Assembly (NCBI GenBank): GCA_963676105.1
Contig: OY781039.1
Coordinates: forward strand, 1,320,001-1,352,000
Length of the DNA stretch: 32,000 nucleotides
Origin: Erysipelotrichaceae bacterium
Lineage (GTDB): Bacteria; Bacillota_I; Bacilli_A; Erysipelotrichales; Erysipelotrichaceae
Direction of reading: 5' to 3'
The notes under the pieces are model-generated. The model saw only the letters and a list, made by a program, of their open reading frames with translations. It made no database searches and was not told the DNA's origin. The translations under genes and the position numbers were made by a program. Of this stretch, positions 7,302 to 7,664 are shown piece by piece. Every line of letters starts with the position of its first letter. The first letter of the stretch is position 1.

Positions 7302-7446
7302 AACAACCACCTACATCTATTCTATTCTAATTGCCTTTATATTTAGGAATAACTTGTTTGAGTGAATATAAATAAATTGTAGGCAAGTGCTTAAACTTGT
7401 TGACAAGTTTGTGGCCACTCCAACTTGTAGATTGGAGGTGATAGCT

Positions 7447-7533
7447 ATGAATGATTTCATACAAGTTATGATCTTAATCATTTCAATCGCAGATCTAATC
7501 GCTTTTATCTTAATCTCTAAGAAAAAACATTAA
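7447..7533 (+). CDS. 28-aa hydrophobic peptide MNDFIQVMILIISIADLIAFILISKKKH, type I toxin-like (module A)
   Basis: SD ggaggtg lies 7 nt upstream of the ATG. The peptide has one hydrophobic helix and a Lys-rich tail. It is one of seven paralogous copies in the window, which differ largely by synonymous or conservative changes. Below the ORF-track size cut-off. Confidence 0.7.
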   Translation: MNDFIQVMILIISIADLIAFILISKKKH

Positions 7534-7539
7534 GTCGAA

Positions 7540-7611
7540 ATAAAAACACTCTTTCTCAATTTTCCAGCGAGTAGAGTGTTTTCCTTTAGAGGTGCACTTT
7601 AGACACTTCTT
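7540..7611 (-). ncRNA. Convergent small RNA of module A (candidate antitoxin sRNA); ends approximate
   Basis: Minus-strand promoter TTAGGA (7642-7647 on plus) - N18 - TGgTATACAAT. The transcript would run into the hairpin aaacactct...agagtgttt + U-run that is shared with the toxin 3' end. It contains CACCTCT, complementary to the toxin SD GGAGGTG. Confidence 0.5.
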
Positions 7612-7664
7612 ACACCTATTGTATACCACTAATGATGATAGTCCTAAGATATTAAGATTAATGA

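Follow-up and report, generated by a model that had tools for sequence, protein, structure and literature searches.

A multicopy type I toxin-antitoxin-like module of par-type layout in an Erysipelotrichaceae genome

Type I toxin-antitoxin loci of the par type combine convergent promoters with a bidirectional intrinsic terminator, oppositely transcribed direct repeats that sequester the initiation region, and a 5′ stem-loop over the Shine-Dalgarno sequence (SD) (PMC7472228). In Bacillus subtilis bsrG/SR4, the antisense RNA SR4 triggers RNase III cleavage and also affects SD accessibility (PMC8309996). The features compiled by Fozo et al. in 2010 are a length below 60 amino acids (aa), one transmembrane segment, a polar or charged C-terminus, tandem copies and absence from annotation (PMC2887945). 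Here we describe a module of 300-360 bp that is present in seven copies in a 32,000-nucleotide (nt) stretch of an Erysipelotrichaceae bacterium genome (GenBank assembly GCA_963676105.1, contig OY781039.1, positions 1,320,001 to 1,352,000; the whole stretch is hereafter the window), and that carries a 28-codon open reading frame (ORF) and a predicted, convergently transcribed small RNA (sRNA). We consider this cassette probably to be a par-type type I toxin-antitoxin-like module, and its peptide a putative toxin. A first-pass annotation of the window had called the unit a multicopy type I toxin-antitoxin family, a claim supported in silico by the coding frame, the predicted helix, the convergent promoters, the sRNA covariation and the synteny of the copies.

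With the par locus of Enterococcus faecalis pAD1 (Fst, RNA I/RNA II) the module shares convergent promoters and a bidirectional terminator with complementary 3′ stem-loops, a direct repeat transcribed in opposite directions through which the sRNA is predicted to pair with the toxin initiation region, and a 5′ stem-loop that sequesters the SD. Sizes also agree, at ~65-90 nt for the sRNA and ~200 nt for the mRNA, and, as in par-like loci, chromosomal copies adjoin phosphotransferase system (PTS) sugar operons. All four features of par-like loci are therefore present, and the par/Fst-type layout proposed at first reading holds, though with one repeat rather than two: the single short repeat covers the SD and not the start codon, whereas par has DRa and DRb. 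Unlike Fst, the peptide lacks both a PXXXG motif and a Trp behind the helix and does not match PF13955; the terminator stem hardly varies among paralogs and between genomes; and the 5′ half of the sRNA appears to be a paralog of the toxin leader.

With bsrG/SR4 and txpA/RatA of B. subtilis the module has in common a small hydrophobic peptide with a basic C-terminus and a convergent antisense RNA over the 3′ end of the toxin mRNA, and we propose the same dual outcome as for SR4. Here, however, the overlap comprises the terminator only (~40-45 nt), SD control would work by direct pairing to a separate repeat and not by induced refolding, and the peptides match neither PF16935 nor, at hhalign probabilities below 1%, these toxins. 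Feature-based searches have turned up other chromosomal type I loci with tandem duplication; in their ibs/sib, ldr/rdl and zorO/orzO types the sRNA overlaps the 5′ region or the ORF, or is divergent, an antisense arrangement unlike that of the present module. Shared with those families and with YhzE, in spite of there being no sequence similarity, are unannotated ORFs (~19-35 codons) for peptides that have one transmembrane segment and end in polar or charged residues, tandem repetition within one intergenic region, and a narrow vertical distribution (PMC2887945). Modules of Clostridioides difficile, CD2517.1-RCd8 among others, likewise have a hydrophobic N-terminal part and a Lys-rich tail, were formerly unannotated, lack homologs, and are convergent and lineage-specific; their toxins differ in being 34-59 aa long and mostly prophage-borne or adjoining CRISPR arrays (PMC6563280).

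Recurrence and coding potential of the module

The copies, labelled c1, c3 (in two parts), c4, c5, c6, c7 and c8, comprise five intact modules, one split by an IS110-family element (c3) and one decayed (c4). An nhmmer profile built from the five full copies (c1, c5-c8) returns these five at E-values of about 1e-76 to 1e-96: c1 at 7331-7660 (+; 1e-78), c5 at 26704-27029 (-; 4e-76), and c6, c7 and c8 at 29106-29433, 29465-29792 and 29824-30133 (all -; 1e-84 or better). It also recovers the right part of c3 (20268-20495, +; 5e-37) and c4 (24025-24264, -; 4e-16); the left part of c3 (18622-18705) was recognised by eye. The seven sites of recurrence listed in the first-pass annotation are thereby all accounted for, and in c1 each element it named, from promoter, leader, SD and ORF to the hairpin and the opposite promoter, lies where it had been placed. 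Copies c6-c8 form a tandem trio, to which a repeat finder assigns a period of 358-359 bp.

The ORF of c1 (7447-7533, +; peptide MNDFIQVMILIISIADLIAFILISKKKH) is 87 nt long, and the frame is open in six of the seven window copies, the exception being c4 with an in-frame stop. The 13 intact main-type ORFs are without exception 28 codons long; base composition by itself would leave a 27-codon stretch open with a probability of 0.13. Among the six window copies the ratio of non-synonymous to synonymous differences (pN/pS) is 0.42 in frame as against 0.75 and 1.20 in the other two frames, and differences at the three codon positions number 154, 85 and 190, the second position changing least. Related genomes were reached by walking from neighbouring genes, and their loci are labelled L056, L082-L087 and L089; when their ORFs are included, 12 distinct sequences give pN/pS of 0.45 in frame versus 0.68 and 1.26 in the other frames, with 645, 331 and 768 differences by codon position. 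The ortholog pair c5 and L089_m1 has 10 synonymous and 6 non-synonymous differences (pN/pS 0.14), and the pair c3 and L089_c3 has a pN/pS of 0.28. The coding signature earlier read from the copies is thus upheld and, as judged from these substitutions, the peptide is translated and its frame is under selection.

The peptide consensus is M-x-D-F-I-Q-V-M-I-L-I-I-x-I-x-D-L-I-Y-x-I-L-x-x-K-R-x-K, in which, besides the start Met, I5, Q6 and K25 are invariant in 13 sequences and position 16 is nearly always acidic. Core hydropathy is 2.4-2.8 (Kyte-Doolittle) in five of the six window copies, AlphaFold2 models residues 2-31 of the 32-residue alignment as one helix (pLDDT 90.6), and the C-terminal tails are charged (KKKH, NKRHK, HKRHK, SKNKL). 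Hydropathy and structure prediction thus bear out the one transmembrane helix and Lys-rich tail proposed previously, as a single hydrophobic helix with a basic tail. As in type I toxins, the peptide is shorter than 60 aa (28 aa) and hydrophobic, with one predicted transmembrane helix and a charged C-terminal cluster, and its genes are tandemly duplicated, with three copies at 29.1-30.1 kb and arrays of three and two in L089.

Scans of the peptides against Pfam, NCBIfam and PHROGs gave noise only. PF13955 (Fst_toxin) had no match at E ≤ 10, where the controls Fst and PepA1 match at ~1e-5 to 1e-4; hhalign against Fst gave a probability of 0.4%, and the peptides show no Fst/Ldr signature, having no Pro or Gly motif (PXXXG) and no Trp. 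PF16935 (Hol_Tox) was likewise without a match at E ≤ 10 (controls BsrG 2e-8, TxpA 2e-7), and hhalign against BsrG gave 0.6%. The earlier likening to Fst/Ldr and holin-like toxins therefore stands for the layout and falls for family membership, since the models match their controls and not these peptides.

Wider searches were similarly empty. A profile search of PDB sequences found no match, a 32-column peptide profile gave 0 matches at E ≤ 0.001 among 1.84 billion representative proteins, and a word-based protein search with a 48-aa in-frame extension of c1 found no homolog. A pattern of SD plus N-terminus matched 55 times in species-representative genomes, each by chance on translation, and a pattern of N-terminus plus terminator gave 6 chance matches in JGI metagenomes, although in both collections a looser pattern might reach further; in viral contigs the former gave 12 matches, all chance. 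The module had no blastn match in plasmids and phages, the peptide had no significant tblastn match in phage and plasmid records (best E = 5, Staphylococcus phages), and the peptide strings led to no paper in full-text literature. Rfam 15 at gathering thresholds reported only a SAM riboswitch in the whole window, and a permissive Rfam search over 7250-7750 nothing better than E 1.7.

That ordinary annotation would miss these ORFs, as had been predicted, is in keeping with their 87 nt and with the lack of a homolog in the searched protein sets. Type I toxin-antitoxin ORFs fall under gene-caller length limits, and their toxins and sRNAs evolve too fast for homology searches; the present family, missed by protein-based surveys, belongs to a low-GC lineage that has been little sampled and is known chiefly through metagenome assemblies. 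Judged by sequence, toxin and sRNA seem to form a new family of the type I class, par-like in layout and not a member of the Fst family. If so, it would be an independent case of the par-type layout with an unrelated toxin, and would bear on the convergent evolution of that layout.

A small helical peptide, cationic at one end and encoded by multicopy tandem genes, might instead be secreted, as a leaderless bacteriocin, a phenol-soluble modulin (PSM)-like peptide or a pheromone; tandem multicopy genes are known for some leaderless bacteriocins and PSMs. This is the least probable of the explanations considered here: no transporter, immunity or modification genes adjoin the copies, the helix is uniformly hydrophobic and not amphipathic, the one Pfam match to a bacteriocin family (YxzE) is at noise level (E 1.9), and such loci are not known to have a convergent sRNA that carries an anti-SD.

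Control elements in the two transcripts

The predicted toxin promoter of c1 (7343-7373, +) reads, from the sequence, as a -35 box TTAGGA (7343-7348), an 18-nt spacer and a -10 box TATAAA (7367-7372). Across copies the sense promoter consists of a -35-like box TTAGGA(A/C), 17-18 nt, and then TAtAAa or TATTAA, and an AGGA core with a TAnnAT box lies upstream of every copy in the window and in L082 and L089. Transcription of the toxin probably starts at GTAG(A/G)G, as suggested by these promoter-like motifs; in c1 the predicted mRNA of ~204 nt (7379-7582, +) would extend from GTAGG, a start placed from the promoter only, to the end of the terminator. Promoters had been claimed on both strands. 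A consensus scan calls the antisense one in c5-c8 as AGGACA-16-TACAAT or TAGAAT; the sense one is weaker and is not called, the antisense promoter being closer to the sigma-70 consensus. In c1 the antisense promoter (7618-7647, -) is TTAGGAC-N17-(TGg)TATACAAT, with its -10 at 7618-7628 and its -35 at 7641-7647.

Toxin and sRNA promoters share a -35-like box TTAGGA(A/C), in place of TTGACA, in every copy and genome (in c1, 7343-7348 on the plus strand and 7641-7647 on the minus strand). It could be a lineage-specific -35, a site for an alternative sigma factor or a shared regulator site. A sigma-H-type promoter, suggested by AGGA and GAAT motifs in c1, was dropped as a candidate because the spacing is unfit and GAAT is absent from the other copies.

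The leader is about 51-68 nt long, shorter than the ~75 nt given in the first-pass annotation, and is predicted to fold into two hairpins, in the second of which (N3-4)GGAGG is paired with a CCUUCAAUC-type arm that precedes it. In c1 this element spans 7415-7440 (+), with the cis anti-SD CCACTCCAA at 7415-7423 and the SD GGAGGTG at 7434-7440, 6 nt before the ATG; across copies the distance from SD to ATG is 3-6 nt. The SD hairpin is predicted in all eight leaders aligned, with two compensatory pairs (RNAalifold), and a register-anchored count finds 93.7% of cells paired. In partition functions of the whole predicted mRNA the GGAGG core has a probability of being unpaired of at most 0.015 in 12 of 13 modules, as against means of 0.15-0.29 in dinucleotide-shuffled leaders, at most 4% of which are as low as the real ones.

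The ORF is followed, after a spacer of 2-8 nt, by a hairpin AAAAACACUCU-loop-AGAGUGUUUUU, in c1 a bidirectional intrinsic terminator at 7542-7582 on both strands (AAAAACACTCT-loop-AGAGTGTTTT). The earlier claim of a hairpin that can terminate both strands between convergent promoters agrees with our prediction of a shared bidirectional terminator. Across the 18 copies from three genomes, ten of its 11 stem pairs (AAAAACACTCT / AGAGTGTTTTT) show little or no variation; the outermost pair is variable and the loop varies freely. Read backwards from the antisense promoter, the terminator would end an sRNA of 72-93 nt, which begins with a short 5′ hairpin and continues with a partly single-stranded CCU(U/C)C(A/G)(A/G)U(C/U). 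The predicted c1 sRNA (72 nt, 7542-7613, -) has this 5′ hairpin, the anti-SD (CACCUCUAA, the complement of 7585-7594) and the shared terminator, and scores 71.9 bits (E 3e-11) with a covariance model built from eight copies. It overlaps the terminator only (~40-45 nt, perfectly complementary) and not the ORF, a correction to the earlier description.

The CU-rich stretch of the sRNA is the complement of a second SD-region copy immediately 3′ of the terminator. Such a repeat (for example GATTGGAGG) stands there in 15 of 15 modules and is transcribed backwards, so that the sRNA has two complementary regions in the mRNA, one at the terminator and one at the SD. Anti-SD and SD can form 7-9 contiguous pairs, G-U included, in 13 of the 15; the c1 sRNA pairs with 7 of 9 positions of its SD region, and in all five window copies tested the best predicted duplex of the sRNA 5′ part covers the SD (RNAduplex). 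The cis hairpin on the SD and the SD-region copy 3′ of the terminator that gives the sRNA its anti-SD both go beyond the first-pass annotation, and together they make the analogy with par a real one.

At E < 1e-3 the covariance model has 18 matches, of which seven fall in the window, eight in L089 and two in L082; the remaining one, in L056, is weak. In the sRNA alignment, whose fitting to the model somewhat favours structure, pairing reaches 95.9% of cells, as against 49-67% when partners are slid, compensatory changes occur in five pairs, and at most one of 500 column shuffles reaches the observed values. Between c5 and L089_m1 the sRNA body and the terminator are each 95% identical, the ORF and the leader 80% and the sense promoter 64%; the RNA side is thus the most constrained part in this pair, although not all other ortholog pairs follow the same order. 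In silico, the sRNA gene therefore has what is expected of one in a type I system: a convergent promoter, complementarity to terminator and SD, and covariation.

The mechanism that we infer from this anatomy, from start sites and RNA-RNA pairing in vivo to RNase III involvement and toxicity, would run as follows. A weak promoter would yield an mRNA of ~185-205 nt encoding the 28-residue membrane peptide, a single helix that ends in a basic C-terminal tail. This mRNA would be translationally silent as made, leader hairpin 2 pairing the CCUUCAAUC-type anti-SD with the ribosome-binding site. A stronger convergent promoter would produce the 72-93 nt sRNA, with its 5′ hairpin, partly single-stranded anti-SD and shared terminator. 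Ending at the same terminator, the two transcripts would have 3′ ends perfectly complementary over ~40-45 nt, and the backward-transcribed copy of the SD region would add 7-9 contiguous pairs between the sRNA and the mRNA SD. The sRNA would dock at the terminator and then cover the SD, blocking translation, and the long 3′ duplex would probably be exposed to RNase III. Were the sRNA depleted, the peptide would be made, insert into the membrane and arrest growth.

Several results weigh against a toxin-antitoxin assignment. Neither peptide nor RNA has homology to any characterised toxin or antitoxin. The start sites rest on promoter-like motifs, the sense promoter falling below the threshold of the consensus scan. 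Predicted SD sequestration is weakest in c1 (probability unpaired 0.15), the copy from which the finding was first described, where the leader has an insertion and the SD pairs partly with the coding region instead. The energies of the 5′ duplexes are only weakly better than those of shuffles (z -1.1 to -2.3, and +1.2 in c8) and by themselves do not convince, and part of the SD pairing is expected from any CU-rich motif. Copy-specific pairing between sRNA and SD found no support, cognate combinations pairing at 7.93 of 9 positions and non-cognate ones at 7.91 of 9. Finally, the c6 peptide (MELFIQVMNPIINIIDLILNFLNHKNKS) is the least hydrophobic, with about half the core hydropathy of the other copies and with Pro and several Asn in the helix, and may be inactive or degenerating; as its RNA elements are intact, c6 may be a detoxified copy kept for its sRNA.

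Distribution, decay and origin of the module

Of two related metagenome-assembled genomes (in assemblies ERZ21862645, contig ctg38489l, and ERZ15185028, NODE_438), one carries eight modules and another two (one of them decayed), at syntenic sites. The relatives of the Macro-domain protein adjoining c5 are 78% and 70% identical to it. The 70% relative (L082) has an intact module at the c5 site (MSDFIQAMILIVSIFELIYAIFYLKRHK) and, at the c3 site, a decayed one (L082b) that has lost its start codon and has an in-frame stop. The 78% relative (L083, L084, L089) has, within 21 kb, three modules in tandem upstream of the SAM riboswitch, which is the c6-c8 site, two downstream of the Macro gene, an intact 26-codon ORF (26 aa; L089) at the c4 site, an intact, uninterrupted module at the c3 site and the orphan sRNA gene described below. 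Orthologs of c5 are thus found in L082, L083 and L089. A second lineage with a 70%-identical Macro protein (L085-L087) keeps a weak remnant upstream of the SAM riboswitch, while 3′ of its Macro gene no module could be detected. In L056, which has a 95%-identical aldolase, the c1 module is absent, and the site holds a weak 36-bit sRNA-like remnant (6645-6724, +) and no toxin ORF. What emerges is a long-established chromosomal family, passed on vertically, whose members have multiplied locally in tandem and have often decayed. Its annotation in related genomes could draw on the covariance model and the peptide profile.

Decay is one-sided: ORFs are interrupted (c3), mutated (c4, L082b) or lost, and sRNA genes persist. 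An orphan terminator and sRNA gene lies after a DEAD-box helicase in L089 (20382-20499, -); it scores 63 bits and has an intact promoter and no toxin ORF. An intact ORF without an sRNA gene was found nowhere in the window and the related loci. Such asymmetry is what would be expected, if indirectly, of a toxic product. Orphan sRNA genes, each at the 3′ end of a gene, probably serve as the terminator of that gene.

The evidence for a translated, selected and tightly regulated membrane peptide would fit equally well a non-toxic small membrane protein that modulates a transporter, a kinase or a stress response, with the sRNA and leader hairpin tuning its level. There is also a precedent in YhzE, a 28-aa multicopy Firmicute family predicted to be a toxin, which showed no toxicity (Fozo et al., PMC2887945). 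Known small membrane regulators, however, are usually single-copy and linked to their partners, whereas two genomes here have at least 7-8 paralogs per 20-30 kb, in tandem and beside unrelated genes; decay is frequent and spares the sRNA genes at the expense of the ORFs; and a double translational lock is typical of toxic products. We therefore think a regulatory role unlikely and favour a toxin-antitoxin module.

As to where the sRNA came from, its promoter and first ~35 nt are visibly homologous to the toxin promoter and first ~35 nt, and both sides contain the string TTAGGA ... TAnnAT ... GTAGAGAnACAC ... GUGUU(n)CCUUCAA. A profile of the sRNA side matches two toxin leaders at E 2e-5 and 6e-5, as against none in 50 rounds of shuffled controls (nhmmer), and, in reverse orientation, the whole-module profile too matched the sRNA side (E 0.008). 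Promoter and 5′ half of the sRNA look like an inverted duplicate of the promoter and leader of the toxin itself, that is, of its cis lock. In such an origin the toxin promoter, the 5′ hairpin and the cis anti-SD would have been copied in inverted orientation and become a trans-acting antitoxin, which suggests a simple route by which RNA antitoxins arise.

Terminators do not normally need a fixed sequence, and a near-invariant stem together with non-specific SD pairing suggests either cross-reaction among paralogs or a sequence-specific partner. Since 10 of 11 stem pairs are near-identical and non-cognate SD pairing equals cognate, any sRNA of the family, orphans included, could neutralise any toxin mRNA; cognate preference would then come from the variable terminator loops only. 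That the copies form a cross-talking network rather than independent pairs, with an antitoxin derived from the leader of the toxin itself, is a possibility that we put forward tentatively and still regard as doubtful; confirmation of both parts would add to the interest of the family.

The same homology makes the ends of each unit, promoter plus ~35 nt of 5′ RNA, imperfect inverted repeats, as the two leader matches above attest. A mobile or selfish non-coding repeat with such ends, resembling a miniature inverted-repeat transposable element (MITE) or a dispersed terminator cassette and containing the ORF incidentally, would also account for the position of the modules at the 3′ ends of genes, where they supply terminators, and for the c1 site being without a module in the close relative L056. 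We find this very improbable. The frame has a coding signature and a strict length of 28 codons in all intact copies; the same sites are occupied where the flanking Macro protein is only 70-78% identical, which argues for vertical inheritance and not transposition; no target-site duplications are visible at the module edges; the copies are heavily diverged (synonymous divergence, pS, 0.3-1.0) and so not recently spread; and nothing similar was found in the phage, plasmid and viral collections searched.

Further copies and neighbouring genes

Besides c1, complete modules are c5 (26717-27020, -), with its ORF at 26839-26925 (MSDFIQIMILLIAIIDLLYTILFHKRHK), terminator at 26788-26831 and sRNA at 26751-26831 (+); c6 (29119-29409, -), with ORF 29235-29321, sRNA 29153-29229 (+) and terminator 29188-231; c7 (29478-29768, -), with ORF 29594-29680 (MDTFIQVMILIISIFELIYSIFLNKRHK), sRNA 29512-29586 (+) and terminator 29544-86; and c8 (29837-30126, -), with ORF 29952-30038 (MNDFIQVMILLIAIFDLIYSIFFNKRHK), sRNA 29871-29944 (+) and terminator 29902-44. 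In c4 (24025-24264, -) a stop at codon six breaks the frame (MNDCI*) and the antisense promoter lacks its -35; the match of this copy to the covariance model is weak (35.8 bits).

The left part of c3 (18622-18705, +) contains the promoter, the leader with its SD hairpin and the SD (GGGGGTGAT), and the right part (20277-20495, +) an intact ORF (20277-20363, MEILIQVMILIISIADLIAFILVNKKKH), the terminator (20372-20413) and an sRNA on the minus strand (20372-20461; 63.6 bits) with its promoter. Exactly between the SD and the ATG sits an IS110-family element (approximately 18706-20272, -) with a transposase ORF at 18820-19995 (Pfam DEDD_Tnp_IS110 and Transposase_20) that is only ~40% identical to plasmid copies from Lactococcus and Clostridium. 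The uninterrupted c3 site in L089 reads GGAGGTGATGCATATG, and GTGAT is found at both junctions of the element with c3. The insertion uncouples an otherwise intact ORF from its translation signals.

The S-adenosylmethionine (SAM, S-box) riboswitch near the tandem trio (28913-29020, -; Rfam RF00162, 51.4 bits) heads an operon that encodes two small proteins (28493-28876 and 28005-28496), neither with a Pfam domain, and the 327-aa Macro-domain protein (27022-28005). The arrangement is kept in L082 and L089; control of a Macro-domain operon by SAM is unusual. In the same syntenic region of the related genomes, type II pairs are interleaved with the type I-like modules, RelB/YafQ and Phd/YoeB, at 224-789 and 16781-17313 in L082 and at 2199-2742 and 17646-18178 in L089; in the window a LUD-domain gene (21007-21609) replaces Phd/YoeB at the corresponding place. 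Three proteins are encoded in a low-GC block (26-28% GC) at 316-4638 (+) that may be a defence or restriction-like island: one of 456 aa in which Pfam finds no domain, an SNF2-family helicase of 660 aa and a NOV_C-domain protein of 328 aa. Lastly, the EIIC and EIID components of a mannose-family PTS are fused in one 531-aa ORF (11719-13314, -), as they are in the closest relatives, L056 and L057, whereas in the more distant L060 they are separate genes.

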